The translations under genes and the position numbers were made by a program. A stretch of DNA of 64,000 bases, from assembly GCA_965552055.1 (NCBI GenBank), contig CBEVQO010000007.1, positions 41,005-105,004 on the forward strand, in the 5' to 3' direction. Under the pieces are notes generated by a model. That model saw only the letters and a program-made list of their open reading frames with translations, did no database searches and was not told the DNA's origin. This document shows, in pieces, positions 345 to 56,916 of the stretch. Every line of letters begins with the position of its first letter. Within the stretch, counting starts at the first letter, position 1. This stretch comes from an uncultured bacterium. Its GTDB lineage: Bacteria; Hydrothermota; UBA3073; NMUJ01; CBEVQO01.

Positions 345-1454
345 ATGTTTGAAGATAAACTTGAGAAGTATTGGTCGGTATTGGGCTGGGATACGAGTTT
401 GCTTGAAAAACACTTCACCCCCAAGAAGCGTCCCCGTAAGAATTTAAATCTCGTTGAAGTAATCGATAAAATTAAAGATTATTTTATAGCAAATAAAGAA
501 GTGCAAAATAAAGTTCGAGCAGAAATAGAAGAAGATGCATTTGAAAGCTTTGACACATTAACTGAACTCATTTCACTTGACAAAGGTTTATCTATAAGTG
601 TTATAGGATTGTATAAACGCCTTTACGATAGCGAAGAAGAAAATTTAAGAGAAGCAGTAGGATATCTGGGTTCATGGAGGATAAGAAATCTGGTAATAAT
701 AAGGTCACTGCTTAACGGAATAAAAGAAATAACCGAGGGATTGGAGAAAGAAATCATCGAAGAAAAAGAAGATATTGAATTGAAAAAATATGTAAGGATA
801 TTCTCGCTGACATCTTTTTTAATGGCTAATGCATCCAATATTATCGGTAAAGAGTTTATTGAATCTTCTGACATTGATTTTTTCACACTTGGTTTGTTGA
901 ATCGTCCCGATGAATTAATAATTGCATCTATCATTGATAATCACATATCAAGAGCAAGAACCTTTGCCAACCTCATAAGGGAGAAATATCATGTGAACCC
1001 TGTTAACCCAGAGATTCGAATCTTCAGTAAAGATGGTGAAATCCTGGCTATATTACCACGCAAAGAGTTTATCTTTTCTGTCTTAACAAAATGGAAATAT
1101 AGTTTGATTTTCTCGGTTGCTATATCTTCTGATATGAATCTATCGGAAATAAACTCATTTTATTCCTTGTTTAACGATGACGAATGGACTTTTTTAGTAA
1201 AATGTTGTTGCATAATTGATTGGGCACGCCATATTTTGAGAAAAATACTGGCTAAAGATATATTTTCAATTGATGACAAAAAACTATGCATGAGAGAACT
1301 TTTACCCGTCAATGATTTAGATGAGATAATGAAAAAGCTATTTTTATCTCACAGACATCTTCGGGAAATCGAAAAGACGATAGAAAGCCTTCTACCACTA
1401 TGGATAAGAAAGCACAAAGAAATAACTGAAAATTTCTTATCGGAAAAAAGTTGA
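345..1454 (+). CDS. HDOD domain protein (degenerate HD motif)
   Basis: LTELISLDKGLSISVI...LREAVGYLGSWRIRNLV matches HDOD pattern; GLLNRPD replaces GLLHDIG. Confidence 0.6.
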   Translation: MFEDKLEKYWSVLGWDTSLLEKHFTPKKRPRKNLNLVEVIDKIKDYFIANKEVQNKVRAEIEEDAFESFDTLTELISLDKGLSISVIGLYKRLYDSEEENLREAVGYLGSWRIRNLVIIRSLLNGIKEITEGLEKEIIEEKEDIELKKYVRIFSLTSFLMANASNIIGKEFIESSDIDFFTLGLLNRPDELIIASIIDNHISRARTFANLIREKYHVNPVNPEIRIFSKDGEILAILPRKEFIFSVLTKWKYSLIFSVAISSDMNLSEINSFYSLFNDDEWTFLVKCCCIIDWARHILRKILAKDIFSIDDKKLCMRELLPVNDLDEIMKKLFLSHRHLREIEKTIESLLPLWIRKHKEITENFLSEKS

Positions 1455-1477
1455 CAACAGGATAAAAAGAATAAAAT
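1451..1477 (+). promoter_or_regulatory. promoter TTGACA-N15-TAAAAT, leaderless geometry
   Basis: TTGACA 1451-1456, TAAAAT 1472-1477, ATG 1484 six nt later, no SD. Confidence 0.7.
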
Positions 1478-1483
1478 AGTAAG

Positions 1484-2698
1484 ATGATATTTCTTATTGT
1501 TTCAAGGATAATCCTTGGACGGATAGAGGGCATTATAGACCCTCCGACGACTGAATATTTTAACAGAGTTTGTGATTATGCTGAAAAAGTGAGAGCTGAA
1601 TTAATTTTATTTACAATGGATACTCCTGGTGGACTTGATAAATCAATGAGGGAGATAGTAAAACGGGAGCTCGGCAGTAAAATCCCGATATGCATCTATG
1701 TGTATCCTGATGGTGCAAGATGTGCATCAGCCGGTGTATTTATACTTTTAGCGGCTCACTATGCTGCGATGTGCCCGGGCACAAATATGGGTTCAGCACA
1801 TCCAGTAGCGATAGGAGGTAAAGTGCCAAAAGAAATGAAAGAAAAAATAGTAAATGATGCTGCCGCATACATAAAAGCCATCGCTGAAAAAAGAGGAAGA
1901 AATGAAGAGTGGGCAGAAAAAGCCGTTAGAAAAAGTGTAAATGTAACAGCACATAAGGCACTGGAATTAAACTTAATAGATTTCGTGGCAGATTCAGTTC
2001 AAGAATTGATAGAAAAAATTTCTCAAAAGATTGAAATAAGAGACAAAAATATAGAAGAAGTGAAATGGCTTTTCAAGGAGCGTTTTTTACATACAATTAC
2101 AAATCCCAATATTGCGTATCTTTTGCTGGTCCTCGGACTTTATGCTTTGATATTCGAGCTAATGCATCCTGGTGCAATATTTCCCGGTGTATTCGGTGCT
2201 GTATCGCTATTACTGGGGCTATATGGCTTGCATATTTTACCTGTAAATTACGCAGGCATAGGGCTTATAATACTTGGGATTGTTCTGTTCATACTCGAGG
2301 CATTAACACCAACTTTTGGACCGCTTACCATCGGTGGTATAACCTGTCTTATCTTTGGCTCTATGATGTTAATCCGTGTAAATGTGCCTTTTCTAAAAAT
2401 TTCCCGCTCATTGATACTGACGGTGGCAATTTTGCTTGGTGGATTTTTCAGCTTCGCTCTCACGATGGCACTCCGTGCAATGCGTCGTCGCCCGGTAACA
2501 GGGAAAGAAGGACTTATAGGTCTTGTGGGAGAATGCAAACAACCTATAAAACCGGGTAAAGAGGGGGTCGTAATGGTGCAGGGAACTTTATGGCGCGCAA
2601 TTGCAGATGAAAGCATAAAAAGAGGAGAAAGAGTAGAAGTAATAGAAACACTTCCCGGACTTATTTTGAAAGTAAAGAAAACAAAAAGAATAGCTTAA
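1484..2698 (+). CDS. nfeD: NfeD family membrane-bound ClpP-class serine protease
   Basis: MDTPGG, ASAGVFI, GSAHPV motifs, TM region, C-terminal OB fold (GTLWRA); adjacent to slipin. Confidence 0.93.
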
Positions 2699-2709
2699 AA
2701 GGAGGGGAT

Positions 2710-3459
2710 ATGTCAGGTGCAGTTATAACCCTTATAATAATATTTGGGATCATTTTATTGGCAAATGCTATAAGGATTTTCCCGGAATACGAAAGAGGGG
2801 TGCTGTTTCGCCTGGGAAGATTCGTTGGGGTAAGGGGACCCGGCATTGTGCTCATAATACCTATAATCGACAGAATACAGAGAGTGAGTTTAAGGATAGT
2901 GACGATGGATGTACCTCCACAGGAAGTTATCACAAAAGATAATGTTTCAATTTCTGTAAATGCAGTTGTTTACTTCAAAGTGGTTGACCCTGCTAAAGCT
3001 GTCCTCGAGGTACAGGATTATCTTTACGCTACATCACAAATTGCTCAAACTACTTTGCGAAGTGTTCTAGGTGCAGTTGAACTCGATGATGTGCTTGCGA
3101 GAAGAGAGAAATTGAATGAAGAATTAAGAAGGATAATCGATGAAGCAACAGACCCCTGGGGGATAAAAGTTACTGCTGTTGAGATAAAAGCAGTGGACCT
3201 ACCTGAAACGATGAAGCGTGCAATGGCAAGGCAGGCAGAAGCAGAAAGAGAAAAGAGAGCAAAAATCATAAGCTCTGAAGGTGAATATATGGCGGCAAGG
3301 AAATTCTACGAAGCTGCAGAAACCCTATCAAAACAGCCAATAGCTGTGCAATTGAGATTCCTGCATACTTTAACCGAAATAGCTTCGGAAAAGAATTCAA
3401 CAATCATATTCCCCGTACCAATCGAATTATTCAGAGCATTTATAAAAGAAAAGTCATGA
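2710..3459 (+). CDS. slipin/stomatin (SPFH, band 7) protein
   Basis: [51 protein letters not shown]. Confidence 0.95.
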
Positions 3460-3578
3460 AAAAATTGGTGATAATAGTTTTGATTTCTTTGTTTATAGCG
3501 GGTTTACTTTTTAAAGATTTTAAAATGATTTTCATCTATGGCTCTAAAATTTGCCTGTCTTGTCTTGGCTTAGGATAA
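3456..3578 (+). CDS. 40-aa CxxC membrane peptide (CD1871A-like), not in ORF track
   Basis: [44 protein letters not shown] overlap with slipin stop; C-terminal ICLxCxGxG directly before a 4Fe-4S membrane protein. Confidence 0.8.
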
Positions 3579-4336
3579 AAAGGATTTACTGGCAGTTAAT
3601 TTCCTTAATTTTATTGAATTCGAACTTTTATCGTCCATTTTACAGTCCGCTGAAGTACTTCCCGTGTCCCATCTTAAACTGCCATGCATGCCCCTATGCC
3701 CAAACAACATGCGCAATAGGAGCACTGCAGTTTTTTATCATGATGAAAAGAATCCCATATCTTATCCTTTCTGTGTTTTTATTTTCTTCCTTTTTCTTTG
3801 GCAGATTATTCTGTGGATGGATTTGCCCGCTCGGTCTAATCCAGGATTTATTTTCAAAACTGAGGAAAAAACATTTTCATATTCCGCATTTTCTTCGGTA
3901 CCTCAAATTTTTTGTTCTTTTTATGATTATTATAATCCCACTTTTTTACTACATCACTCCTTTTTGTAAATTCATTTGTCCTATGGGAGTAATTGGAGGG
4001 AGTTTTGCTTTTCTCTTCGATAAGAGTTTATTACAATTACCCTTAAATTTATTTAAATTCAAAGTATTTCTCACTTTAATTTTTCTGTTAAGTTTTATAT
4101 TCTGGCGCCGTCCTTTCTGTGCAGTTTTTTGCCCTGCAGGTGCTTTACTTTCCTTCCTTCATAAATTTTCAATTAAGAAGATAACTTTTGATGAGGATAA
4201 ATGCACAAAGTGTGGTGAATGTGTTACAAAATGTCCTGCTGGTTTAATTCCTTACAAAGATTATAATAGTTTCGATTGCATCAGATGTTATGAATGTGTA
4301 AAGATTTGCAAATTTAATGCCTTTAAAATTTTGTGA
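3551..4336 (+). CDS. 4Fe-4S binding membrane protein (NapH/MauN-like polyferredoxin)
   Basis: LNCHACP, GRLFCGWICPLG, FCKFICPMG, RPFCAVFCPAGA, CTKCGECVTKCP, CIRCYECVKIC. Confidence 0.88.
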   Translation: MPVLSWLRIKRIYWQLISLILLNSNFYRPFYSPLKYFPCPILNCHACPYAQTTCAIGALQFFIMMKRIPYLILSVFLFSSFFFGRLFCGWICPLGLIQDLFSKLRKKHFHIPHFLRYLKFFVLFMIIIIPLFYYITPFCKFICPMGVIGGSFAFLFDKSLLQLPLNLFKFKVFLTLIFLLSFIFWRRPFCAVFCPAGALLSFLHKFSIKKITFDEDKCTKCGECVTKCPAGLIPYKDYNSFDCIRCYECVKICKFNAFKIL

Positions 4337-4380
4337 AAATAATCTTGACAAAATGGAAAATCAATTATTAATAATTGAGG

Positions 4381-4452
4381 ACGCCGCTAGCTCAACGGTA
4401 GAGCACCGGATTCTTAATCCGGGGGTTCTGGGTTCGAATCCCAGGCGGCGTA
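4381..4452 (+). tRNA. tRNA-Lys (anticodon CTT), CCA not encoded
   Basis: Cloverleaf: acceptor ACGCCGC/GCGGCGT, D stem GCTC/GAGC, anticodon stem CCGGA/TCCGG with loop TTCTTAA, T arm CTGGG-TTCGAAT-CCCAG; TTGACA at 4345. Confidence 0.93.
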
Positions 4453-4459
4453 TTTTATT

Positions 4460-5485
4460 ATGATTTCAAAATTGATAACTGCTTTTTTATCTTCATTCCT
4501 CATCGTATTGATACTTACACCCATTTTTAAAAAATTAGCACTAAAATTAAATGTGGTGGATTATCCAAATGAAAGAAAAATACATAAGAAACCTGTTCCC
4601 CTCTTTGGAGGGATACCTGTTTTCATCTCCATTACTTTGTTAACATTTATCTTTGTAAAACCATCCAGAGAATTAATGGGGATTCTCATCGGTAGTGTTA
4701 TTGCATTTATTGATGGTTTGCTTGACGATGTTATGGAGCTTCGTGCATCTTTCCGCATATTTCCGCAAATACTGGCAGCTACTATCTGTATATTTTTCGG
4801 TGTAAGAATGACATTTTTGCCACACAACATATGGGGGACAGCTTTGGAATTCATACTTTCTTATCTCTGGCTAATTGGATTAACCAATGCAATGAATTTC
4901 TTCGATGGTATGGATGGTCTTGCTTCGAGTTTATCCGCTGTTATATGCTTTTTCCTTGCTGTAATCGGTTTTTTAACAAATCAATTTACACTCGTAATAG
5001 TATCAGTGATTGTGATGGGTGCTACTCTTTCTTTTCTTATTTACAATCATCATCCTGCTAAAATTTTCCTTGGAGACGCTGGAAGTGAATTTCTCGGCTT
5101 TTTCATCTCTGCTCTCGCTATGAATGCTGAATGGGCTGAAAAGGGACCTCTTTTTGCACTCGCAATTCCTGTGTTAATTTTCGGAGTAATGATTTTTGAC
5201 ATGATTTACATATCGATAAAAAGGTTCGTTAAAAAAGAAGTAAGAACTATAAGAGAATGGCTCGAATATACAGGTAAAGACCATTTGCATCACAGATTAT
5301 TTAATCTCGGTTTTTCTCAGCCCCAAACGGTATTTTTTATAGTGGCTGTCACCATCTGCCTTGGTGTATCGGGCATCATCTTAAGGCTTACTTTCTCGAA
5401 AACAAATGCCATCTTACTTGTATTACAGGCATGTATAATCTTATCTTGCCTCTCTGTTTTGATGATAAAGAAACAGAATGTATGA
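4460..5485 (+). CDS. undecaprenyl-phosphate GlcNAc-1-phosphate transferase (WecA/TagO, MraY-like family)
   Basis: RKIHKKPVPLFGG, GLLDD, NAMNFFDGMDGLA, IFLGDAGS, DHLHHRL; multi-pass. Confidence 0.9.
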   Translation: MISKLITAFLSSFLIVLILTPIFKKLALKLNVVDYPNERKIHKKPVPLFGGIPVFISITLLTFIFVKPSRELMGILIGSVIAFIDGLLDDVMELRASFRIFPQILAATICIFFGVRMTFLPHNIWGTALEFILSYLWLIGLTNAMNFFDGMDGLASSLSAVICFFLAVIGFLTNQFTLVIVSVIVMGATLSFLIYNHHPAKIFLGDAGSEFLGFFISALAMNAEWAEKGPLFALAIPVLIFGVMIFDMIYISIKRFVKKEVRTIREWLEYTGKDHLHHRLFNLGFSQPQTVFFIVAVTICLGVSGIILRLTFSKTNAILLVLQACIILSCLSVLMIKKQNV

Positions 5486-6269
5486 AAAATACTGGGGATT
5501 TAAAGAAAAGCCATTCGAAAATGTATGTAACCTTAAATATTTCTTCAAAAGTGAGTCACATATCGAAGCAATATCAAGGATGACATATACGGTAAAAGAA
5601 AGAAAAGGAGCAATGGTGTTGACAGGAGATTACGGAACAGGCAAAACACTTACCTTAAGATGGTTTATCGAAAATACAGAAGAAATAAAGTTTTTATTCA
5701 TCGATTATCCCGAAGGAAATCCAGAGAACTTTATGAAACAAATTCTTATTTCTGCAGGCGAAGAGATAGAAGAAAAAGACAGATTCTTACTGTCACAAAA
5801 AATAAAGGAATTAATTTTGAAAAATACAGAAGAGGGCATAAATACGGTCATGATAATAGATGAAGCACAAACTCTGGAAGACCCTCTATTTGAAGTGATA
5901 AAAATTTTGCTAAATCTCAGGGAAACATTTTCTGCTGATTTTTCTGTAATTTTAAGCGGAAGTGAAAAGTTGATTCATAAGATAAAACAAAACGAACAAC
6001 TATTACAAAGGATACCCGTTTATTTCCATTTAACTGCACTATCCTATGAGGAAACAGTGAGATACATAGATTACAGACTGGAAGTAGCAGGTGGCGATAC
6101 CGACATTTTTGATGAGACAGCCAAAAAGAAAATATATGAATTGTCAAAAGGAATACCCCGCAAAATAAACAACCTGTGCGATACCGCATTACTCATTGGC
6201 TTCGGTAAAAAGGAGAAAAAAATAAATGACAAAATAATAGAACTGGCTGAAAGAGAAATTTTGCCTTGA
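5478..6269 (+). CDS. ExeA/GspA-type AAA+ ATPase
   Basis: MYEKYWGFKEKPF start, GDYGTGKT, IIDEAQ, SKGIPRKINNLCD. Confidence 0.88.
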   Translation: MYEKYWGFKEKPFENVCNLKYFFKSESHIEAISRMTYTVKERKGAMVLTGDYGTGKTLTLRWFIENTEEIKFLFIDYPEGNPENFMKQILISAGEEIEEKDRFLLSQKIKELILKNTEEGINTVMIIDEAQTLEDPLFEVIKILLNLRETFSADFSVILSGSEKLIHKIKQNEQLLQRIPVYFHLTALSYEETVRYIDYRLEVAGGDTDIFDETAKKKIYELSKGIPRKINNLCDTALLIGFGKKEKKINDKIIELAEREILP

Positions 6270-7584: not shown

Positions 7585-7849
7585 TACCGTTATAAAGCGC
7601 TCGGAGAATATCGCATGGCAAAAATTTGAAGATAAAGTTTTTATAATCACTCCTGATGATTCAATGTTACACATGCTAAATGAAACAGGAACAAGAATTT
7701 GGGAAATTATTGAGAAACCAAAGAAAATTTCGGAAATAGTAGAAGAGATTTTAAAGGAATATGATGTGACAAAAGAAAAAGCAGAACAATCGGTAAAGAG
7801 ATTTATTTCTGAATTGATAAAGAAAGGAATTTGTGAAATTTCAGCTTGA
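7550..7849 (+). CDS. PqqD family (RiPP recognition element) protein
   Basis: LNETGTRIWEII...ISEIVEEILKEYDV...FISELIKKGI. Confidence 0.85.
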   Translation: MSMKEHLSLSPDTVIKRSENIAWQKFEDKVFIITPDDSMLHMLNETGTRIWEIIEKPKKISEIVEEILKEYDVTKEKAEQSVKRFISELIKKGICEISA

Positions 7850-7883
7850 CTTTTCGTAAAAATTGAATAATTATAAAGAAGTT

Positions 7884-23261: not shown

Positions 23262-24686
23262 TCATTCTCTGCTTTCTAAAAGTTGTACGGTTTTTCCATT
23301 TTCCATCACAAAGACAGTAATGTTACCTATTGGCATTTTCACCACCTTTTTAATATCATGCAAGTGTAAAATTTTCTGACATTCATTTTCAAGATTTTCA
23401 CGATGCTTCCTTATCCTTTTTATAAGATTATTTACTTCTTCCTCTTCCCAGTAATATCCTTTCCATACTTCCAGTGATTTCAAAATCTCGTTTAAATACC
23501 AAATAAATCGATGCGCTACTGTATAATAGCCGGCTTCCTCACTAAATTGTTTTTCTATCTCCTTAGAATGTAATTTTATAATCAATAGCCCTTCTTTTAT
23601 CATGTTAAGATTCTGCTTAACATCTTTGCCAATTATATTTATGCACTTCTCCATAAATTCCTCGTCCGTTAGCTTACCATAATATCGCTGGAAAAACTCA
23701 TTTTTATTTTTTTCACTCAATTCCCTTCGATTACACATTTTCTCCTTTATTTCCTCTATCTCAGGAGCAGAGATGCTTTTTAATATATTTTCACAGCACT
23801 CGGACAAATCCTTTAGCCATTCGAGAGATATAAACATAAAGTTATTTATCATCTTATATTGCTTTCCTTTATCTTCTTTATCTTCAATTTTTCGTAATAT
23901 AAATTCGCAATATGCTATCATATCATCAATGGATATCTCAATTGCTTCAGCCAAAGATATTTTCTTTCCATATCCAGATGAAATCGGGATTTTCTCTTCC
24001 TTCAACTTATAGACAGTTACGCCATTAAAAAGATTTACCACTTTACATATGCCTGCTGAACGAAGAATTTCCCCACATTTCTTTACAAGGATTTTATAAT
24101 CTTTTTCCATTTTTCTTTCAAGGTTCTTTACTTCTCTTTCCTCCCAGAAATTTCCTTTCCACACATTTAATGTTTTTAAAAGGTCATCCAGATACCCTGC
24201 AAATGCATGCATCGTGGCGTAATTCTTCGAAAGTCCACAGGATATCTTTGATAGTTGATCAGAATAAGACTTTAATGTCAATAAACCTTCTCTCAATACA
24301 TCCATATTTTGTCTCACCTCTTTACCGATTGTTTCAATAAACTTTTCTCTATATTCTTCATCGTTCATCTTTCTTTCACAAAGTTTCACTCGCATATCTA
24401 TTTTTTCTTTCATTTTTCCCAATTCGGAGATGCCCAGCAGTGAAAGTCTCCAGCAATGAAAAGATGTAATTTTTAGTAAACTTAATGAAATATATAAATA
24501 ACAGGATATAAAGTCATATTGTTTTTCTTTGTCTTTTATATTTTCTATTTTTTGTGAAATGAAGTCACAATACGCTATCATGTCATCAATTGCGTTCTCC
24601 AGTGCCTGAGCGGAAGTAAGTTTACTTTTACATCCCATTAACCCAATCACAGATGAAATGAAAATCACAAATAAAAACTTTTTCAT
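23262..24686 (-). CDS. hypothetical lipoprotein with two ~220-aa internal repeats
   Basis: Lipobox LMGC; IDDMIAYC(D/E)FI and VWKG.(F/Y)WEE.EV.NL each occur twice; AGGAG SD. Confidence 0.8.
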   Translation of the reverse strand: MKKFLFVIFISSVIGLMGCKSKLTSAQALENAIDDMIAYCDFISQKIENIKDKEKQYDFISCYLYISLSLLKITSFHCWRLSLLGISELGKMKEKIDMRVKLCERKMNDEEYREKFIETIGKEVRQNMDVLREGLLTLKSYSDQLSKISCGLSKNYATMHAFAGYLDDLLKTLNVWKGNFWEEREVKNLERKMEKDYKILVKKCGEILRSAGICKVVNLFNGVTVYKLKEEKIPISSGYGKKISLAEAIEISIDDMIAYCEFILRKIEDKEDKGKQYKMINNFMFISLEWLKDLSECCENILKSISAPEIEEIKEKMCNRRELSEKNKNEFFQRYYGKLTDEEFMEKCINIIGKDVKQNLNMIKEGLLIIKLHSKEIEKQFSEEAGYYTVAHRFIWYLNEILKSLEVWKGYYWEEEEVNNLIKRIRKHRENLENECQKILHLHDIKKVVKMPIGNITVFVMENGKTVQLLESRE

Positions 24687-24711
24687 TTCACTCTCCTATT
24701 TTCCACATCAA

Positions 24712-24738
24712 ATTTTAATGAAAATATAAATTCGTCAA
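24712..24738 (-). promoter_or_regulatory. promoter TTGACG-N15-TAAAAT
   Basis: Reverse complements at 24733-24738 and 24712-24717. Confidence 0.6.
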
Positions 24739-27029: not shown

Positions 27030-27104
27030 ATGTTATTTATATCCCAAAAAATTAAAATATCAAGCTTTTTGCTTGACAAAATTAATTGCCGATTAAATTT
27101 AAAG

Positions 27105-37786: not shown

Positions 37787-37830
37787 ATCACCCCCAATCT
37801 ATATATAATCCATTTATTTCTTTGTCAAGC

Positions 37831-37869
37831 TTTTATAAAACTTGACAAACTGGTTTTACAAATAAAATT
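37831..37869 (+). repeat. 39-nt direct repeat copy 1, containing TTGACA-N15-TAAAAT
   Basis: TTTTATAAAACTTGACAAACTGGTTTTACAAATAAAATT identical to 38432-38470. Confidence 0.95.
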
Positions 37870-37893
37870 TTCTGTGTTAAAGGATAAAAAGAA

Positions 37894-38430
37894 ATGAAGG
37901 TATTTTTAATAATTATGTGCATGGAATTTCATTTTATTCCAATAAATTTAGATTTGGGGTTTTATGTTTCAACTGCGTATTTTTCAATTCGTTTTCTCCG
38001 CACAGATTTTAAGATAAAAGAAAGCACATTTAGTATCTCAGCAAATAGATGGGATGGGATTATTCACCATGGTCTTTATGAAAGTGTTTTTCCTTTGAGA
38101 TATATGTTTAGAAACTTTAATATAGAAGTCGACTGGCTTTACTATCAATTTGTATTGGGAGACGAATTTCAATTATCTGCTTATTTATGTCACGCTATCA
38201 GAGCAGGGATATCAAACCAATATATTTTTGGAAAGAAAGTTTACTTTTTGATTTCACCTCATATTAACATCATTGTGATTTATAAGCCATATTGTAATGA
38301 TACGGATTTTGGAATTTCAGCGGGTGCCGAAATATTTATTGGTGCAAGAACAAGGGAAAAAGGAACTGCAATTCGGCTTTTGATTACACAATATTGTAGT
38401 TGCATCCTTTTCTGGCTTTGCAATCTCTAA
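37894..38430 (+). CDS. hypothetical exported beta-rich protein (paralog of 38973)
   Basis: EFHFIPIN and LRTDFKIKE shared with third gene. Confidence 0.75.
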   Translation: MKVFLIIMCMEFHFIPINLDLGFYVSTAYFSIRFLRTDFKIKESTFSISANRWDGIIHHGLYESVFPLRYMFRNFNIEVDWLYYQFVLGDEFQLSAYLCHAIRAGISNQYIFGKKVYFLISPHINIIVIYKPYCNDTDFGISAGAEIFIGARTREKGTAIRLLITQYCSCILFWLCNL

Positions 38431-38431: not shown

Positions 38432-38470
38432 TTTTATAAAACTTGACAAACTGGTTTTACAAATAAAATT
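38432..38470 (+). repeat. 39-nt direct repeat copy 2 (promoter), 5 nt before ATG 38476
   Basis: Identical to 37831-37869. Confidence 0.95.
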
Positions 38471-40761: not shown

Positions 40762-40917
40762 TTATCCCCAGTATTCTGGCTTTTCGCTTTTCCTCACTTT
40801 ATCAAGTGGGTCATCTTTACTTTTATTCTTACCGCCATTTTCTAAAATTTTTATATGTCCAACTCTTATTTTTGGTTTTCTTCTCTTTATTATTCTTATA
40901 GTTTTAACTTTAATCAT
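40762..40917 (-). CDS. 51-aa basic hypothetical protein (not in ORF track)
   Basis: MIKVKTIRIIKRRKPKIRVGHIKILENGGKNKSKDDPLDKVRKSEKPEYWG*; ATG 5 nt after TTGACA-N16-TATAAT; stop 1 nt before rsmD start. Confidence 0.7.
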   Translation of the reverse strand: MIKVKTIRIIKRRKPKIRVGHIKILENGGKNKSKDDPLDKVRKSEKPEYWG

Positions 40918-40946
40918 CTTTAATTATAAACCAATTTTGCCTGTTG

Positions 40947-41837
40947 TCAAGGTGATTTTTCCCTTGGGTGGTATTCTTTTAAATCTTCTTTTAATCTTTG
41001 TCTATCTATCTGCGTATAAATTTCAGTGGTTGATATTTTTTGATGTCCCAGCAATACCTGTACTGTGCGTATATCTGCACCGCCTTCCAAAAGATGTGTT
41101 GCGAAACTGTGTCGCAAAGTATGGGGATGAACATTTTTCCTTATACCTGCTTTCAAAACATATTTCCTTAAAATCTTCCATACACCCATTCTTGATAATT
41201 TTCTTCCATCTTTATTCAAAAATAAAGTTTCTGTCTCCCTTCCTCTTTTTAAGAAAGGTCTAACATCACGAATATAAACAGATAGCCATTTTTTTGCTTC
41301 TTCTGTTAAAGGAATCATCCTTTGTTTTCCGCCTTTGCCAAAGCATCTTATAAATCCTTCATCAAGGAAAACATCCGAAACTTTAAGGTCAATTAATTCC
41401 TGCACTCTTACTCCTGTTGCATACATAAGTTCTAACATAGCTTTATCACGCTTGCCAAGCGGAGTTCCAGTATCTGGCTGGTCAAGCAGTTTGAAAACCT
41501 CCTCAACATCTAAAACCTCTGGCAATTTCTTATATTTCTTCGGTGGCTCAATTATTTCCATAACTTCGGAATCAATCCCATATTCTTTTTCCAGAAATTT
41601 AAAGAATAATCTCAAAGATGTAATGCATCTTGCAACGGTAGATAACTCTGAATTCTTACGCAAATCCGAGATAAACTTTAACAAAACTGCTTCATCCACC
41701 CTCTTTAAAGATATTTCCTTATCTTCAAGAAAATTCAAAAATTTTTTAATATCATAACAATAAGATTCCACACTTTTCTCGGACAATCCCTTATCTATTT
41801 TCAAATACATTTCAAAATTTTTTAAAATATCTTTCAT
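40947..41837 (-). CDS. xerD: site-specific tyrosine recombinase XerD
   Basis: RDKAMLELMYATGVR, GKGGKQR, HPHTLRHSFATHLL, LGHQKISTTEIY. Confidence 0.9.
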   Translation of the reverse strand: MKDILKNFEMYLKIDKGLSEKSVESYCYDIKKFLNFLEDKEISLKRVDEAVLLKFISDLRKNSELSTVARCITSLRLFFKFLEKEYGIDSEVMEIIEPPKKYKKLPEVLDVEEVFKLLDQPDTGTPLGKRDKAMLELMYATGVRVQELIDLKVSDVFLDEGFIRCFGKGGKQRMIPLTEEAKKWLSVYIRDVRPFLKRGRETETLFLNKDGRKLSRMGVWKILRKYVLKAGIRKNVHPHTLRHSFATHLLEGGADIRTVQVLLGHQKISTTEIYTQIDRQRLKEDLKEYHPREKSP

Positions 41838-44954: not shown

Positions 44955-45012
44955 CAAAATATTTTATATAATTTTTCCGAATGTCAAGGAAAAAAATTGC
45001 CGAATATTCTAA

Positions 45013-45041
45013 TTGACATACCCACCCCCCATATATATATT
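45013..45041 (+). promoter_or_regulatory. dnaA promoter (TTGACA; TATATA at spacer 15 or TATATT at spacer 17)
   Basis: TTGACA 45013-45018 followed by C-rich spacer and (AT)n run. Confidence 0.6.
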
Positions 45042-46607: not shown

Positions 46608-46620
46608 AAAAGGAGGTAAC

Positions 46621-49670: not shown

Positions 49671-49836
49671 CAATCATTTTAATGATAAGTTCAGTTTGTC
49701 AAGTTTATTTATTTTAAATTTAAATGCATATCCTCTCATATATAACACATTTACACCCTCGATTTGTGGCAGTTTTCTGAACCACATTTTAGAAGGTAAG
49801 AGTGCATGTTAAAATTTTTGAAATTCATATTAAAAT

Positions 49837-49915
49837 TTTTAATGCGAACGTAAGCGAGCCTGTTACATATGGGTTGTGAGGAGGGTGGTGGGGACAGGGA
49901 GGCGGGGCTAAAAAT
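49837..49915 (+). repeat. intergenic repeat element copy 1 (block A 49837-49876, G-rich block B 49887-49915)
   Basis: Block A 37/40 identical to 56696-56735; block B matches 56840-56869 with one indel and one mismatch. Confidence 0.9.
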
Positions 49916-49954
49916 AAAAATTTGACAAATAAAGAATTTCAATATATTTAATGC

Positions 49955-51214
49955 ATGGCTGTAAATCTGCCATATAATTTGTCGAAAGAAAGTGTAAAAT
50001 TTGAAATAGAAGAAAAATATGTAAAAGAAATAATCGAACCCAGAAAGCTTAATGAGATAAATTTGAAGGAAGTTTTGATACAAAAATTGTCAATTTTAAA
50101 TGAAGATAAAAGATTAAAAAAAGCAAAAAAAATAGCAATTCTTGTCGATGATTACACCAGACCCACACCCACAAGGGAAATTTTACCGTTACTTATAGAA
50201 AAGATTGAAGGGATAAACAAAAATTGTGAAATAAAGATAATATATGCGGAAGGGACTCATCCTGTTACAAAGATGGAGCAAATTTATCAGAAGATACCTG
50301 AAGATATTTATGAAAAATATGATGTCGTGATTCATGATGCTTATGATGATAGCAAAAATGTATTCGTGGGAATCACAAAGTTTGGTACTCCTTTATTTTT
50401 AAATAAGGAAGCAGTTTCTACGGATTACAGGATAATAATAAATTCTATTTTTCCAACAGAAATAACAGGATTTACTGGTTCGAGCAAAATGATAGTACCC
50501 GGTATTGCAAGTGCATTTACAACGGACAGAAATCATGCATTGATGATAGCGAGGGGAATTGATGCTGGAAGTTTTGATAATGTTGTTCGTCAAGATATGG
50601 ATGATGCAGCAGAAATTTTTGGAGTGCATCTTGATATAGAGGTGATAATGAATCCAGATTACACTATTCATGAGATTTTGATAGGTGATTTTAAAGAAGT
50701 TTATAGAAAAGGATGTGAAATTTCAAAAGAAATTTTCATGCCTTATGTAAGAGGCAAATCTGATTTTGTGATAGTGAGTCCGGGTGGTGTTGAGGATGTT
50801 GACCTCTGCCAATCATTTAAGGCACTTGCATCTGCTTATAGAATATGCGATGGTGATATAATTTTGGTAGCAGCTTGTCCACTTGGTACTCAATGGCCAG
50901 AATTTGCAGATGTCTTGCACTATGTGAGAAGGAAATGCAAAAAAAGAGAAGATGTTTTGAAATTGCTCGGTGAAGAAGAATTTGAATCAATTTCCGTAGT
51001 TCTCTTATACAGATACTATGATTCACTTGTTGAATTAAAGCGTAAAATTTATCTTTATTCCGATGGGATAACAGAAAGAGAAGCACAATCTTTTGGCTTT
51101 GTAAAAATAAAAAATGTTGAAGAAGGAATAGAAATGTGCCTGAAGAAAAAAAGCGATGCTAAATTTTACATAATCCCTCACGCAGCTTACACTTTTCCCG
51201 TAATTAAAGCTTGA
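49955..51214 (+). CDS. LarA family nickel-pincer-dependent racemase/epimerase homolog
   Basis: DDYTRPTP, EGTH, IHD, GFTGSSKMIVPGIA, NH, DVDLCQSFKAL. Confidence 0.82.
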   Translation: MAVNLPYNLSKESVKFEIEEKYVKEIIEPRKLNEINLKEVLIQKLSILNEDKRLKKAKKIAILVDDYTRPTPTREILPLLIEKIEGINKNCEIKIIYAEGTHPVTKMEQIYQKIPEDIYEKYDVVIHDAYDDSKNVFVGITKFGTPLFLNKEAVSTDYRIIINSIFPTEITGFTGSSKMIVPGIASAFTTDRNHALMIARGIDAGSFDNVVRQDMDDAAEIFGVHLDIEVIMNPDYTIHEILIGDFKEVYRKGCEISKEIFMPYVRGKSDFVIVSPGGVEDVDLCQSFKALASAYRICDGDIILVAACPLGTQWPEFADVLHYVRRKCKKREDVLKLLGEEEFESISVVLLYRYYDSLVELKRKIYLYSDGITEREAQSFGFVKIKNVEEGIEMCLKKKSDAKFYIIPHAAYTFPVIKA

Positions 51215-51242
51215 CATTGTAGAGAAGTTTATAAAATGATGG

Positions 51243-52085
51243 GTGATAAAATTAATGAAATCCTTTTATCATTCTTTCTTTTATAAGATACATGTGCAAT
51301 TTATTCGCATTCTTTCCAATTTTATAATGTTTTTGCTATCCCCAAAAAGGGTAAGGATACTGGATGAGGAATGGGATTATTTGATAATTCTTGATGCTTG
51401 CAGATATGATTTTTTTAAAAAATACAATTTCATCAAGGGCAAACTTGAAAGGAAAGTGAGTATGGGTTCATCTACTCCCGAATGGTTCAGGAAGAATTTT
51501 GAGAGAAAAGTAGATGATGTGGTATATGTTACTGCGAATCCGTATATTTCGAGATGGATTGAAGAAGGGAAGCTCCTGCAAAGATTTTTTTATATGGAGC
51601 ATTTATGGCAATATGAGTGGGATGAAGAGTTAAATTCTGTGCATCCTGACCGTGTTGTTGAGAATGTTCTCAGATTGAAAGAGAAGTATCCCGATAAAAG
51701 AATGATAATTCATTTTTTACAGCCTCATACACCTTTTATAGGCGAGACAAGGATACCACCTGATGGCAGGGTATCTGTAGAAAGAAGGAGAAAAGCATAT
51801 AAAGATAATCTAATCTTAGTTTTAAAAAGTGTGAAAAAACTCATTGATAATCTTTGTGGCAAAATAATAGTGACAGCAGATCATGGAGAATGTCTGGGAG
51901 AATGGGGTCTGTGGAAGCATCCCGATAATGTACATGTAAAGGAGCTAATCGTGATACCATGGCTCATTATAAATAAAGGAAAAAGGAAAATAGTCCCAAA
52001 ATCAATAGAACCCCCGAAAGAGAAAAAAATAGATGAAGGGATTCTCACGAAAAGATTAAAATCATTGGGATATTATCCTGACTGA
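51243..52085 (+). CDS. sulfatase/alkaline-phosphatase superfamily protein
   Basis: LDACRYD, GSSTPEW, HFLQPHTPF, TADHGE, RLKSLGY. Confidence 0.82.
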   Translation: MIKLMKSFYHSFFYKIHVQFIRILSNFIMFLLSPKRVRILDEEWDYLIILDACRYDFFKKYNFIKGKLERKVSMGSSTPEWFRKNFERKVDDVVYVTANPYISRWIEEGKLLQRFFYMEHLWQYEWDEELNSVHPDRVVENVLRLKEKYPDKRMIIHFLQPHTPFIGETRIPPDGRVSVERRRKAYKDNLILVLKSVKKLIDNLCGKIIVTADHGECLGEWGLWKHPDNVHVKELIVIPWLIINKGKRKIVPKSIEPPKEKKIDEGILTKRLKSLGYYPD

Positions 52086-53368
52086 TGATTGCACTTTTTG
52101 TAATTGCTGGAGTGATTGCCGGTGCTATATTCTCACTTCTACCTGCTTTACATATTTATAACATTGTTGCGATTATTCTTTTGATGAAGTTTCCGCCGCT
52201 ATGCGTTGCCTCTTTTTGCCTTGGACTCATTGTAGGCTTTTCTGTCGTTAATACGATACCTTCGGTATTTCTTGGTGCACCTGATGAGAGTGCGGTATTT
52301 CTTGTACTCCCGGGGCAAAAATATCTTTTGCTCGGTAGGGGATATGAAGCATGTGTATTGAGCGGGATAGGCAGTATTCTTGCGATTTTTTCTCTAATAC
52401 TTTTGATTCCATTATTTCAAAAATTTTTACCCTTTTTAAAAATTTTACTCGCAAGGCATTATTACTGGCTTCTTGGTTCTATAATTTGTTATATTTTGAT
52501 GTCAGAATGGCCAAAAGGAGGCGATAGGGGTACTCCCTTTTATCGCTTTTTAGATGGCTGGCGTACACTTTCTTACGGACTTTTGACCTTCTTTTTATCT
52601 GGTTTGCTTGGTATTATTTTGTTTTATAAACCTTTAATACCTGTTGAGCGTGGTTTTCAAAACTTAATGCCCGTTTTTGTTGGTTTGTTTGCGATTCCAT
52701 GGGTGCTAATGAATATAATTTCTGGCACAAAGGTTCCTGAGCAAAATATAAGCAGTAGTGTAAATGTTCGTCCTGTTCATATTTTTCATGGCTGGTTCGC
52801 GGGAGCTATTGGAGGATTATTGGCTGCTTTCCTTCCTGCTATCACAGGTGGAGTGGGGGGTTTACTTGCTGGTCATGCCACTGCTCAGCGTGATGACCGT
52901 GTTTTTATAATTTCTCAGGGAGCATCAAAAGTTTTCTATTATGTTGGTGGTTACTTATTTTATTTAATCCCTGGAGTGAATTTGAAAAGAGGAGGTCTTG
53001 CCTGGATGGTTGGCACAGTTTATTCTCCTGCTTCTTACAAGGAATTCTGGCAAATGATGATAGGCTTATGCATTGGTGGTCTACTTGCATTCTTTCTTTT
53101 AATTTACTTTGCGAAAATTTTTGCGAGATACATTTATCATTTTTCATACAAAATGATTTCAATAATTGCACTTTGCATAATAATTTTACTTGTAGTTTTG
53201 CTGACAGGGATAAAGGGTTTACTGATAGCTGCTACTGCAACAGGTATAGGTTTGATTCCTGTTTTATATGGTTCGAGAAGGATGAATTGTCTAGGAGTAA
53301 TACTTTTGCCCATCACCTTGAATATGGCGGGATTAGGAGATGATATTGCAAAATTTTTAGGTTTTTAA
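52085..53368 (+). CDS. tripartite tricarboxylate transporter TctA-like permease (archaeal type)
   Basis: LLPALHIYN, IPSVFLGAPDE, VLPGQKYLL.GRG, GLFAIP; multi-pass. Confidence 0.8.
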   Translation: MIALFVIAGVIAGAIFSLLPALHIYNIVAIILLMKFPPLCVASFCLGLIVGFSVVNTIPSVFLGAPDESAVFLVLPGQKYLLLGRGYEACVLSGIGSILAIFSLILLIPLFQKFLPFLKILLARHYYWLLGSIICYILMSEWPKGGDRGTPFYRFLDGWRTLSYGLLTFFLSGLLGIILFYKPLIPVERGFQNLMPVFVGLFAIPWVLMNIISGTKVPEQNISSSVNVRPVHIFHGWFAGAIGGLLAAFLPAITGGVGGLLAGHATAQRDDRVFIISQGASKVFYYVGGYLFYLIPGVNLKRGGLAWMVGTVYSPASYKEFWQMMIGLCIGGLLAFFLLIYFAKIFARYIYHFSYKMISIIALCIIILLVVLLTGIKGLLIAATATGIGLIPVLYGSRRMNCLGVILLPITLNMAGLGDDIAKFLGF

Positions 53369-53378
53369 AGGGGGGATT

Positions 53379-55415
53379 ATGTTTGTGTTACTCTGTATAA
53401 TGTACATGGAGACGAAATATGCGACAGGGTGCTTGGTGGAAGACCCCACGACCATTCCATGGCTTCATCGTGCTGAAATAAAAGCGAAGAAAATCTTGCC
53501 ATCGAAGGTTGATTTATCGAAATTCATGCCTCCTGTTGGGAATCAGGATGGTCAGGGTTCCTGTGTTGCATGGGCTGTTGGCTATTATCATAAGACATTT
53601 CAGGAATGGCTCGAACATAGATGGGATGTTACTTCGCCTTATCATCAATTCAGTCCTGCTTTTATTTACAATCAGATAAATGGTGGTGTGGATGGTGGCT
53701 CTTACATTTCCGATGCCTTGAAATGCCTTTGTGACCTTGGATGCGCAAATTTGGTGCTATCACCTTATGATCCTTATGATTCAACTACATGGCCAAGTGA
53801 AGAAGCATATGACTCTGCGATAAAGTATCGGAGTGACTCTGCATATTATTTGTATTGCGGGGATACTGCTGGAATAAGGATGATAAAGCAATTGCTTTAT
53901 GATAGTATAACTGTTATAATTGCGATTGCTGTTTATTACAATTATCTTTACATTGAAAATTATGATACGATGTATTGTGTTGCTGATTCTGCTGGTGAGC
54001 TTTATGGCTGGCATGCTCAATGTATAGTCGGTTATGATGATAACAAGCCAACGCATGATGGTGTGGGAGCTTTCAGGGTAGTCAATTCATGGGGGACTGA
54101 CTGGGGCAACAACGGGTATTACTGGATGTCATATGAAGCTGTAATGAGACCTTCTTTCTGCTGGTGTTATGCTTACTATTCTACCGATAAAATAAATTAC
54201 TCTCCCAGGGTTAAATCACGCATAAGGATAATACATCCTTCGAGGTATACCGTTGGGATAAGTCTGGGAGCAGGAGAGTCCACTTCTCCTGTTTGGGAGA
54301 AGAACTATTTCGACTGGTATATGCCGAGGCGAGCTGACTGGCCATTTCCCTCGCATAAAATAGTCCTTGATTTAACTGATGGTACAGATTTTATTTCGCG
54401 CGGAACCAATATATTTCTCCGATGCGTTGATGAAGTTATTGATGCATATACGGGCTCGGTTGATACATTTCTTGTGCAACATCTTGAATGGGCGGTAACA
54501 GTGGCATCACAGCAGACACCTGCTCCGATAACCGATGGCGGAACTGCTTATGTGAATGTAATATTGCCAGGCACCGCATACTACTCAATATCAGGATATG
54601 TAAAGAGATGGGATGATACTCCTGCAGACTCAATTATGATGGTGCTTACAGGATATGTTAATGAAACATTATATACAGATAGCAGTGGATATTATGAGTT
54701 TGACAGCCTTTTATCTGGTAAAAATTATATTTTAACTCCCTATAAAGAGAGCTGGATATTTGACCCGGATTGCAGGGAATATAATACTTTAAGCGCAAGT
54801 CAAACAGAGCAAAATTTCACAGGATATACTGATATTTATGAGCCAAATAATACAATTGCACAGGCTTATGGACCGCTTTTGAAAGATACTTTATACTACT
54901 CTTTCATCTGGTCTGCTGATGATACAGACTGGTATTACTTTGAATTACCTGAGAGTGTTTTCTATTCAATTGATGTTATTTTAACCAGTTTACCAGCTGA
55001 CTATGACTTATTTTTGTATGACGAAAATGGTCAAATGATAGCAAGTTCGGAGAATTCTGGCTTTCATTACGAAAGAATAGAAATGGATACATTAACTGGC
55101 AAGAAATACATTAAAATAATCGGCAAAAATGGTGCTTATCATCAAAAAGATACATATTTATTAAAAGTAAGCTGGTCTTTCCTTGCATTAAACGAAGAAA
55201 TAATCAAACACAAAGTCTTAATTTATCCCAATCCAGCGCATGGAGAAATAAAAATTTTCGCATCACCTGGAATGCGATATGAAATTTATGATATTAGCGG
55301 TAGATTAATAGAAAAAGGCTTTTCTAAAATAAATGCGAGAAATTTATCTCCCGGGATTTACTTTATAAGAATCGGTAATTCAAAAAGATTGCATAAAATA
55401 ATATTGCTTAAATGA
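53379..55415 (+). CDS. C1 papain-like cysteine peptidase with PPC-like and T9SS-like C-terminal domains
   Basis: QDGQGSCVAWA, GWHA, NSWGTDWG; YEPNN...DYDLFLY; IYPNP...IYDISGR...PGIYF. Confidence 0.88.
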   Translation: MFVLLCIMYMETKYATGCLVEDPTTIPWLHRAEIKAKKILPSKVDLSKFMPPVGNQDGQGSCVAWAVGYYHKTFQEWLEHRWDVTSPYHQFSPAFIYNQINGGVDGGSYISDALKCLCDLGCANLVLSPYDPYDSTTWPSEEAYDSAIKYRSDSAYYLYCGDTAGIRMIKQLLYDSITVIIAIAVYYNYLYIENYDTMYCVADSAGELYGWHAQCIVGYDDNKPTHDGVGAFRVVNSWGTDWGNNGYYWMSYEAVMRPSFCWCYAYYSTDKINYSPRVKSRIRIIHPSRYTVGISLGAGESTSPVWEKNYFDWYMPRRADWPFPSHKIVLDLTDGTDFISRGTNIFLRCVDEVIDAYTGSVDTFLVQHLEWAVTVASQQTPAPITDGGTAYVNVILPGTAYYSISGYVKRWDDTPADSIMMVLTGYVNETLYTDSSGYYEFDSLLSGKNYILTPYKESWIFDPDCREYNTLSASQTEQNFTGYTDIYEPNNTIAQAYGPLLKDTLYYSFIWSADDTDWYYFELPESVFYSIDVILTSLPADYDLFLYDENGQMIASSENSGFHYERIEMDTLTGKKYIKIIGKNGAYHQKDTYLLKVSWSFLALNEEIIKHKVLIYPNPAHGEIKIFASPGMRYEIYDISGRLIEKGFSKINARNLSPGIYFIRIGNSKRLHKIILLK

Positions 55416-56695
55416 TTGGATTTTTGGTTTGTGTATTTTATCTTAATTTGGACCATCCTGTTTATGATATTCTTCCTGTTTTATATATTTCGGGAGAAAT
55501 TAAAAATTTACCTATTGATAGACCTTATGATTTAGACGGTCTTTTATCTTCTGAATTACTCAAAAAATATGTTGGTAAGAGGTGGAAATTTTTTTCTTAT
55601 TTCTTTGCCGATGTTTTTTATTGTGATTCGCCTGGTTTTCATTTATCTGCATCGTTCTATTATTCTGATAAGTTCTTTTCTCTTGGCTGGCAGGGGATAG
55701 GCGGTACACTTGAGGGTTTACCCCTGGCAAGACCCTGGCGTGGCGAAGTGCCTTTTCGTACCCCTTATATGGGATTTATCAATAAGCAGGGGTACTTATC
55801 TTTTACTTTTAAGCGAACCGAATTTTTATTTGGTAGATTCCCGTTGCTGGAAGGACCGGGCTGGAATTCAGGATTACTCGTTTCTCCAAAGCCTTACGAT
55901 GTTTTAATGATGAAATATAAAATAAATGACAGAATAAAGTTAAAATATTTTGTTTTATTTCTTGATAAATATGAGGAAGATAGTGTGATATACAAGAGGT
56001 GGCTTTCATTTCATGAGATTAGCATTAGATTTAAGGGATTAACTCTTGGTTTATCAGAAGCCATTTTATATGGCAGGACGAGTTATGTTCCAGAATTATA
56101 TTATTTGAATCCTGTACTTTTGTGGATTGCCAGTCAGCATAATTGCTGGGAAGATGATAATTTATTTTTCAAACTGGAATTTGCTTTAGACTTAAGGGGA
56201 TTGCGTATTTATGGAGAATTTCTTGTGGATGATTTTCAGTATGCACCTGACCCGAGGGGCGAGCCGAACGAAATAGGTGGTATTATCGGGGTGCAAAAAT
56301 ATTTTAAAAATGAATTTTTGAATTATTTATGGATTGAATACAGAGCTGTTACTGCATGGGTTTATAATCAGAGGCATCCGAGAAACAGGTTGATATATTA
56401 TGGTGAATGCCTTGGTAACGAATTTGGACCCGATGGTGATAAGCTCTTGATAAAACTCGGCAGATTGAAGAGTGGCAGATTGATGGAACTTGAGGCTTAT
56501 ATACAAAGGAAAGGAGAGAATGAGATAGAAACGCAATGGCCCGATGTCTTTCCTGGAGATTATTTTTTGACGGGCAAGGTGAAAAAAGATTTTGGAATGA
56601 TTCTGAAGTGTATTTTAGTTCCGCAATATAGATTTGAAATAGGGATGGGTACGAAGGATAAAATACTTCGCTTTGTTTATACTGTTTCTTTTTAA
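55412..56695 (+). CDS. capsule assembly Wzi-like outer-membrane protein
   Basis: GPG...GLLVS, LGLSEAILY, YLNP, DDN, YGEFLVDD; terminal Phe. Confidence 0.65.
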   Translation: MIGFLVCVFYLNLDHPVYDILPVLYISGEIKNLPIDRPYDLDGLLSSELLKKYVGKRWKFFSYFFADVFYCDSPGFHLSASFYYSDKFFSLGWQGIGGTLEGLPLARPWRGEVPFRTPYMGFINKQGYLSFTFKRTEFLFGRFPLLEGPGWNSGLLVSPKPYDVLMMKYKINDRIKLKYFVLFLDKYEEDSVIYKRWLSFHEISIRFKGLTLGLSEAILYGRTSYVPELYYLNPVLLWIASQHNCWEDDNLFFKLEFALDLRGLRIYGEFLVDDFQYAPDPRGEPNEIGGIIGVQKYFKNEFLNYLWIEYRAVTAWVYNQRHPRNRLIYYGECLGNEFGPDGDKLLIKLGRLKSGRLMELEAYIQRKGENEIETQWPDVFPGDYFLTGKVKKDFGMILKCILVPQYRFEIGMGTKDKILRFVYTVSF

Positions 56696-56869
56696 TTTTA
56701 ATGCGAGCGTAAGCGAGCTTATTACATATGGGTTGATATGTCAGCCCATTACGGGTTTTTGATTTACTCGGGTGTTTTTGCGCTTTATCTTCTGATTGCG
56801 TTTAAATAAGGGTAAGGAGTGGGCTGACTTAATCGGGAAGGTGGGGACAGCGGAGGAGGGGCTAAAAAT
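56696..56869 (+). repeat. intergenic repeat element copy 2 with ~100-nt hairpin-bounded insert
   Basis: Blocks A (56696-56735) and B (56840-56869); GTCAGCCCATT 56740-56750 pairs with AGTGGGCTGAC 56818-56828. Confidence 0.88.
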
Positions 56870-56916
56870 TTTTGAAAAAATTGTTGACAGAATGATAATA
56901 TGCTTAAATGTATAAG

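Follow-up and report, generated by a model that had tools for sequence, protein, structure and literature searches.

Promoter-type signals in the window

Here we examine a promoter-type signal that recurs through a stretch of 64,000 nucleotides (the window; G000:C7:41005-105004) from an uncultured bacterium, in which a TTGACA-like -35 hexamer lies 15 bp, rather than the usual 17 bp, from a TAAAAT-like -10 hexamer. Signals of this kind stand ahead of genes in the window, among them genes for an NfeD-family protein, an AAA ATPase, an OmpA-domain protein and a LarA-family racemase, and closely 5' of the tRNA-Lys gene and gene run that ends in dnaG and rpoD (Table 1). The genome under study (G000; 2.23 Mb, 97% complete, 35% G+C, 1945 genes by simple in-house gene calls) was compared with others of its phylum, taken here to be WOR-3 from DnaK matches whose named sources are mostly WOR-3, Stahlbacteria and TA06, and in particular with three draft genomes of a sister family (G001, G002 and G003; 99, 87 and 66% complete), which together with G000 make up the order. 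Genome-contig and protein searches for closer relatives suited to dN/dS or orthologous-promoter comparisons returned a 99% identical copy and otherwise nothing above about 45%. The number of base pairs between the -35 and -10 hexamers is written N15, N16 or N17.

An initial annotation of the window had listed twelve sites, ten of them N15 and two N16, and had read them as signs of a shifted promoter geometry and of leaderless mRNAs. All twelve are present with the spacers it gave, and at eight of the ten N15 sites an in-frame ATG or GTG that opens a long open reading frame (ORF) does lie 5-6 nt past the -10. Nine of these ten have a TAnnnT -10, the exception being 56884, where TAAATG lacks the T at -7. 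Across the window as a whole, 68 occurrences of TTGAC(A/G) are accompanied by TAnnnT at N15 in 10 cases, at N16 in 3, at N17 in 1 and at N14 in 2. The sites at 37842 and 38443 share one identical 27-nt sequence and are thus not independent; they precede two neighbouring genes of unassigned function (promoters at 37842-37869 and 38443-38470; products of 178 and 166 aa), and the promoter at 49702 is similar.

A genome-wide spacer mode of 15 bp

Among promoter-type signals, TTGACA-N15-TA(A/T)AAT predominates in G000 and throughout its order. Over the 2.23 Mb of G000, the two hexamers are found 253 times at N15, 47 times at N16 and 17 times at N17, with each of the other spacers from 8 to 26 bp yielding 2-14 matches. 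Intergenic matches to TTGACA-TAnnnT number 328, 52 and 70 at N15, N16 and N17, against 4.0, 4.7 and 3.2 in ten dinucleotide shuffles, and overlap with the -10 of an N15 site accounts for 54 of 82 N17 matches; a looser pattern, TTGACW-N-TAWWWT, gives 399, 74 and 94. With no -10 presumed, TTGACA is found 32 nt (156 cases) or 33 nt (81 cases) ahead of the start codon, and among the 156 the bases T, A and T occupy the positions that an N15 promoter assigns to -12, -11 and -7 in 89, 92 and 83%. Spacers free of any run of four identical bases are likewise dominated by N15 (96, 15 and 4 for N15, N16 and N17), and the spacing is therefore no sequencing artefact. The shifted geometry proposed in the initial annotation is thus upheld, the genome-wide mode being 15 and not 17, and it extends to the rest of the order and to the stable RNAs.

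The consensus consists of an A/T tract, cTTGACA, a 15-bp spacer ending in TGAT, and TA(A/T)AAT, the intergenic N15 sites including 120 with TAAAAT and 114 with TATAAT. Adenine occupies -9 and -8 in 83 and 73% of 367 sites, and a TG dinucleotide is placed at -16/-15 (28%), as compared with -15/-14 (48%) in a WOR-3 family whose mode is N17. With its TTGACA -35, its TATAAT-like TAnnnT -10 and its placement before first genes and stable RNAs, the signal resembles a sigma70 housekeeping promoter, but it departs from one in the spacer, which is expected at 17 +/- 1 bp. Conventional promoter prediction reads three of these promoters with wrong -10 boxes at 18 bp. No second class of promoter covarying with the base at -8 was detected in G000 (p>0.2 for seven of eight features).

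N15 signals precede 198 of the 350 divergently placed first genes of G000, compared with 23 for N16 and 34 for N17, and only 21 of 1114 tightly coupled internal genes. Among 47 stable-RNA rows, 20 (19 tRNAs and the tmRNA) have an N15 TAnnnT signal 6-18 nt before the mature end and one has an N17 signal only, while most of the other tRNA and tmRNA rows are internal to clusters or show a -10 that is missing the T at -7. N15 spacing is also found at both ribosomal RNA (rrn) promoters and at what appears to be the RNase P promoter. We are highly confident that the N15 signals are working housekeeping promoters of G000.

Predicted leaderless starts

Most of the N15 sites are predicted to give leaderless mRNAs. 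An ATG or GTG that opens a long frame lies 4-8 nt past the -10 at 256 of 446 N15 sites, with a mode of 5 nt. Shine-Dalgarno (SD)-like words stand ahead of 7 of 234 leaderless-type starts, and an SD-led downstream alternative is present in 4 of the 234. An in-frame stop is found within 45 nt upstream in 207 of 241 leaderless candidates; for 110 of the 241, homologues were found in DNA of relatives totalling 2.08 Mb. The alignment begins within the first 10 residues for 85 of these, and ahead of the next possible start codon for 76 of the 89 candidates that allow this comparison. The proposal that leaderless mRNAs serve most operon-first genes needs qualification: the 350 divergent first genes comprise 148 of leaderless type, 88 leadered and 114 without a detected promoter, such that the predicted leaderless type covers a majority of the genes with a detected promoter (148 of 236), against 148 when all 350 are counted, and a large SD-led class exists. 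In this second class the SD directly follows the predicted transcription start site (TSS) and the ATG lies at 17-18 nt, giving short leaders; the anti-SD is intact in G000. Loss of bS21 as a cause of leaderless use was rejected, bS21 being present in 5/5; in the window its gene (rpsU, 12569-12730), which is shorter than the frames in the ORF list, lies between dnaK-dnaJ-rsmE and mutS2-dnaG-rpoD.

The base preceding the start codon is G in 72% of starts at 5 nt and 63% of those at 6 nt, while in G035 it is mostly T; the true transcription start may be that G, giving a one-base leader. Leaderless-type starts in relatives amount to 13 of 40 in G035 (300 kb), 4 of 62 in family f4 (359 kb) and 24 of 56 selected sites in G001 (916 kb). 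At two places in the window (24686-24706 on the minus strand and 37874-37897 on the plus strand), the predicted TSS coincides with a GTG that begins a frame of 7 codons, whose TGA overlaps the main ATG. Of the possibly coupled leaderless mini-ORFs genome-wide, 7 of 24 end in an ATGA overlap. A longer ORF of 51 codons (40762-40917, minus strand) begins 5 nt past a perfect N16 promoter, upstream of rsmD.

Table 1. Promoter-type sites and sigma-factor genes discussed in the text (window coordinates unless a contig is given; start-codon distances are from the -10).
Feature	Position	Strand	Remarks
N16, TTGACA/TACAAT	301..328	+	SD-led main ATG at 16 nt
N15, TTGACA/TAAAAT	1451..1477	+	ATG at 6 nt, NfeD-family gene, 404 aa
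Additional N15-type site, TATTAA (no T at -7)	4345..4371	+	closely 5' of tRNA-Lys and gene run ending dnaG-rpoD
dnaG	14718..16376	+	directly upstream of rpoD
rpoD, 575 aa	16369..18096	+	regions 2.3 and 4.2 conserved; 2.4-3.0 strongly diverged
N15, TTGACG/TAAAAT	24712..24738	-	GTG at 5 nt opens 7-codon ORF overlapping SD-led main ATG at 25 nt
N15, TTGACA/TAAATT	27073..27099	+	ATG at 5 nt, AAA ATPase, 395 aa
Additional N15-type site, TATATA	37802..37828	-	5' of SD-led rplY (bL25)
N15, TTGACA/TAAAAT	37842..37868	+	GTG at 5 nt opens 7-codon ORF overlapping main ATG at 25 nt
N15, sequence identical to 37842	38443..38469	+	ATG at 6 nt, 166 aa
N16, TTGACA/TATAAT	40923..40950	-	ATG at 5 nt, 51-codon ORF
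N15, TTGACA/TAAAAT	44961..44987	-	ATG at 6 nt, OmpA-domain protein, 717 aa
dnaA upstream site	45013..45041	+	-10 either TATATA (N15) or TATATT (N17); lies back to back with the site at 44987
N15, TTGACA/TAAAAT	49676..49702	-	ATG at 5 nt, 224 aa
N15, TTGACA/TATATT	49922..49948	+	ATG at 6 nt, LarA-family racemase, 419 aa
N15, TTGACA/TAAAAT	51211..51237	+	GTG in frame at 5 nt; an ATG in frame at 17 nt may serve instead
N15, weak -10 TAAATG	56884..56910	+	ATG at 6 nt, DUF6754 protein
Short group-2-type sigma	G000:C5:66601-67371		regions 1.2-4, no region 1.1; between htrA and M23 peptidase gene

Spacer modes across the phylum

The spacer mode is lineage-specific across WOR-3. With the strict pattern applied to 40 relatives, family f4 peaks sharply at 17 (e.g. 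3/5/265 matches at N15/N16/N17) and G035 (family f17), also sharply, at 16 (5/224/17), while others are mixed. The sister-family genomes contain few strict matches, and with TTGACW-N-TAWWWT yield 83/26/12 (G001), 65/25/6 (G002) and 48/15/4 (G003). In a survey of 151 phylum genomes, N15 matches outnumber those at N16 and N17 together only in G000 (399 vs 168), G001 (83 vs 38) and G002 (65 vs 31), and the remaining 148 have at most 46 N15 matches each, which shows the 15-bp mode to be restricted to the order among the genomes searched. Families f19, f20, f22, f28 and f30 have almost no TTGACW-TAWWWT signal at 15-17 bp and lie outside the reach of this comparison; they may use another promoter type. 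A weak N15 preference in family f3, indicated by strict counts in G004 (16/9/4), was discarded, looser patterns giving 16/17.

Within the order, the two families differ in their -10 boxes. The N15 promoters of the sister family have a TAnnTT -10 and are without the TG and the upstream tract (in G001, T occupies -8 in 73% of 56 sites), whereas those of G000 have TAWAAT, as do the relatives that use RpoD.

Sigma factors of the order

RpoD of G000 contains regions 1.1, 1.2, 2, 3 and 4 and is encoded after dnaG, the layout of a group 1 sigma, yet scores below curated cut-offs (369.7 vs 555 for NF004208; 284.8 vs 354 for TIGR02393). Its divergence is concentrated in regions 2.4-3.0, where identity is lowest (0.40), and 4.1, while 2.3 (0.84) and 4.2 (0.75) are kept. 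In E. coli numbering it retains T432 (presumably tied to the A at -9), W433, W434, Q437, R451, R584, E585 and Q589, and is substituted at T440M, R441K and E458N, with a one-residue deletion in region 3.0 and two one-residue insertions in 3.2/linker. According to PMC3130263, Q437 serves the -12 position and R584, E585 and Q589 the -35 box. A tandem duplicate of region 1.1 (window 16369-16755; copies 38% identical) is present in this RpoD and in none of the N-termini of nine relatives. Region 2.4-3.0 may conceivably have been copied from the short sigma described below: windows drop to 0.06, but never favour the short family.

Most relatives have a second, short sigma match. In G000 this is a group-2-type sigma without region 1.1, and it is found in all four N15 genomes, with a length of 270-280 aa in the sisters. 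No rpoD was found in G001-G003 with the G000 RpoD, the N-terminal half of a relative's RpoD, or Pfam regions 1.1, 2 and 4 as queries; in G001 and G002 the gene after dnaG, well inside the contig, is an unrelated one, and in G003 dnaG was not found. In these three drafts only the short sigma and an extracytoplasmic function (ECF) sigma were found, and the short sigma is their only candidate primary sigma, unlike in G000. The link to this RpoD implied by the initial annotation is doubtful, as the sisters have N15 promoters and no detectable RpoD. A FliA-like sigma is also encoded in G000 (C1:473688); its consensus does not match the G000 boxes. The sigma tree referred to below is a quick tree of 59 rows, flagged for long branches.

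A proposed core enzyme with a 15-bp ruler

The reading that we favour, at somewhat less than even confidence, is that the 15-bp spacing is set by the core RNA polymerase of the order and shared by two sigmas, since the finding of one spacer with two different sigmas points to the core enzyme as determinant. In such a sigma70-family holoenzyme the core would hold the sigma4/beta-flap module about 2 bp nearer to the -10 than in model bacteria. RpoD would read the N15 promoters in G000 (TAWAAT), and in the sister family the short sigma would read them (TAnnTT, Bacteroidota-like); most would fire at, or one base before, the ATG or GTG to give leaderless mRNAs, and the rest would give short SD leaders. 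A single change, in the ancestral core enzyme of the order, would have produced the shift, after which RpoD region 2.4-3.0 may have been re-tuned to the new DNA path. The fuller history, in which the ruler was re-set to 15 bp in the core, making whichever sigma70 binds it read short promoters, and the housekeeping role has been passing from RpoD to its short paralogue, a passage complete in the sister family, is a more tentative proposal.

A comparison of RpoB and roughly 500 N-terminal residues of RpoC with some 30 other WOR-3 sequences identified changes shared by the order in beta (K890R, V924F/L, Q510P, V1239A, Q1264R, F1265A and M1304T/V) and in beta-prime (E42D, R312K, S353A, E386Q/H and changes at the V407 position). 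Candidate determinants among these would be K890R and V924F/L in the flap, Q1264R/F1265A, V1239A and M1304T/V in the RNA-exit and switch regions, and E42D and E386Q/H in the beta-prime zipper and dock. Outside the order, E42D occurs only in G035, the strongest N16 genome, and R47K occurs only in G000. PMC10216364 describes the accommodation of spacer length through rotation of the sigma4-flap-tip module and contact of beta-prime R47 with the spacer, and 10.1101/534826 an influence of the beta C-terminal helix on activity across spacer lengths. Indels in the flap or zipper were dismissed as a cause, none being present in G000. Flap G907A is common to G000 and G035 and missing from the sister family. 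In G001, rpoB and rpoC lie apart (C18 and C31), and rpoB is followed by an unrelated gene.

Several observations weigh against a core-set spacing. As only two families are available, the shared core substitutions amount to one evolutionary change, and neutral synapomorphies would look the same; most of them are conservative, and the flap is without an indel. The G000 RpoD has the longest branch of 30 RpoDs (0.71; identity 0.51 vs 0.56-0.64) while RpoB is not accelerated, a pattern equally compatible with selection on RpoD having been relaxed once the short sigma had taken over. The linker of the short sigma is 2-3 residues shorter than that of RpoD (148-149 vs 151, from WW to RER). Furthermore, the absence of rpoD rests on draft genomes, and G020 (84% complete) is also without most of rpoD through an apparent assembly gap.

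The short linker and the long RpoD branch, together with the changes at T440, R441 and E458, also speak for the main rival explanation, that the short sigma, with a 15-bp preference of its own, became primary in the ancestor of the order, leaving RpoD to diverge in G000 and to be lost in the sisters. Only the short sigma was found in all four N15 genomes, the G000 copy groups with the sister copy (support of 86 in the Shimodaira-Hasegawa-like approximate likelihood ratio test, SH-aLRT), and conservation of region 2.3, the melting region, is highest in G000, G001, G002 and G016 (0.74-0.75 vs 0.39-0.49 in the strict N17 family). A precedent is offered by the Bacteroidota, for which PMC12632263 reports a TANNTTTGY box and a sigma that has no region 1.1. 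However, the short linker is also present in G010, G014 and G016, which peak at 16/17 without a clear minor N15 class; the TAWAAT of G000 differs from the TAnnTT of its sisters; and the divergence of RpoD is local, unlike plain decay, with regions 2.3 and 4.2 kept. We regard such a takeover as unlikely, though worth serious consideration.

Rather improbable, in our judgement, is a shift intrinsic to the sigmas that occurred twice on an ordinary core, in RpoD of G000 (through 2.4-3.0 and the 3.2 linker) and independently in the short sigma of the sisters. RpoD does have a unique deletion in 3.0 and two insertions in 3.2/linker, as well as its low identity over 2.4-3.0, and the displacement of TG to -16/-15 is in line with E458N. 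However, two parallel shifts to one rare value in sister families would be required, G035, whose RpoD has none of these indels, likewise places TG at -16/-15 and has a mode of 16 bp, and G029, whose 2.4-3.0 identity is similarly low (0.44), peaks at 16.

An effect of DNA topology, whereby relaxed or positively supercoiled DNA would favour short spacers with an ordinary polymerase, is very unlikely to be the explanation. G+C-rich 16S and reverse gyrase suggest that G000 is a thermophile; reverse gyrase is present in G000, G001 and G002, and the only type IIA topoisomerase A subunit of G000 is without a GyrA box, such that its chromosome may be without negative supercoiling. Relaxation favours 15-nt spacers according to PMC9303308, and topology may sharpen the 15-bp preference in G000. 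As a sole cause, however, reverse gyrase and supercoiling are largely refuted by G026 (2/1/20) and G038 (0/2/28), which encode reverse gyrase and peak at 17 (the latter with no type IIA subunit found), and by G001, which keeps the GyrA box and peaks at 15; G035, without reverse gyrase, peaks at 16. With the optimal angle of 543 degrees from PMC9303308, we calculate that a spacer of 15 bp would require superhelical density to be near +0.065. The A subunit of G000 (C1:27250-29580) has a diverged C-terminal domain, the GyrA box being kept in four relatives, while in G038 (99% complete, 4 contigs) reverse gyrase is present and a type IIA topoisomerase A subunit was not found.

The slightest probability of all belongs to readings in which polymerase takes another register with its -10 at 17 bp, in which an activator binds TTGACA, or in which the spacing is an assembly artefact. 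The loose pattern does give 94 N17 matches and some AT-rich sites such as 45013 are ambiguous, but most N17 matches are by-products of the N15 -10 as counted above, and N15 holds without homopolymers and in four assemblies. Were the -10 two bases further downstream, it would be separated from the start codons by 3-4 nt and from the mature ends of two tRNAs by 4 nt. CarD was excluded as a candidate, with no CarD-length match in 41 genomes and only Mfd-length frames (37 of 41).

Significance and relation to known systems

The 17-bp spacer is usually treated as fixed by the geometry of bacterial RNA polymerase, and the predicted promoters described here place canonical boxes 2 bp (about 70 degrees of helix) closer together across a whole transcriptome. 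With sharp peaks at 16 and 17 in relatives from the same phylum, the determinants should be findable through subunit swaps and a short list of residues; if our reading is true, the phylum offers a natural 17-16-15 series for pinning down what sets bacterial promoter spacing, and the sister family a second case, besides the Bacteroidota, of a short sigma in a housekeeping role. That the sister family has apparently lost rpoD is a separate finding in its own right. N15 promoters would form a class poorly read by model polymerases, with implications for orthogonal parts and for genes that are not expressed in clone libraries. Promoter finders that allow only 16-18 bp overlook these promoters or place them in the wrong register. 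No primary-sigma promoter set with a 15-bp mode, and no WOR-3 promoters, were found in the literature searched, which covered few subscription papers; new here are the extent of the trait over the order, the series of 15, 16 and 17, and the failure to find RpoD in the sister family.

The closest counterparts of the G000 promoters are those of group 1 sigma70/SigA in E. coli and B. subtilis, with which they share TTGACA and TAnAAT boxes, an upstream A/T tract, a T-rich tract, a TG near the -10 and conservation of the sigma residues for both boxes. They differ in a spacer of 15 instead of 17, in TG at -16/-15 instead of -15/-14, and in a start codon whose mode lies 5 nt past the -10. In PMC12641261, the TSS in 49 mapped species is centred 7 bp past the -10, mostly with 17-bp spacers, the model used having E. 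coli as its training set and allowing 15-19 bp; a general spacer range of 16-20 bp is given in PMC1615881. The sister family, which appears to run on a short sigma without region 1.1 and has a TAnnTT -10, resembles the Bacteroidota with the primary sigma and -33/-7 promoter described in PMC12632263. The order departs from that system in its canonical TTGAC -35, where Bacteroidota have a -33 TTTG box, and its spacer of 15, and G000 in retaining a full RpoD.

Bacteroidota promoters have a spacing equivalent to 16-18 bp, while spacers are 15 bp for sigma28/FliA and 13-15 bp for sigma32. The latter two likewise demonstrate that a sigma70-family holoenzyme is workable at 15 bp or less, but they do so with other boxes and small regulons, whereas the canonical boxes of G000 precede tRNA and rRNA genes and hundreds of operons. 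Leaderless mRNAs are frequent in Actinomycetota and Deinococcus-Thermus, and the predicted leaderless genes of G000 are similar in having a -10 located 5-7 nt before an ATG or GTG and no SD, with SD sequences used for internal and leadered genes. In contrast to those groups, G000 keeps a strong -35, has G rather than a pyrimidine before the start codon, and encodes bS21.

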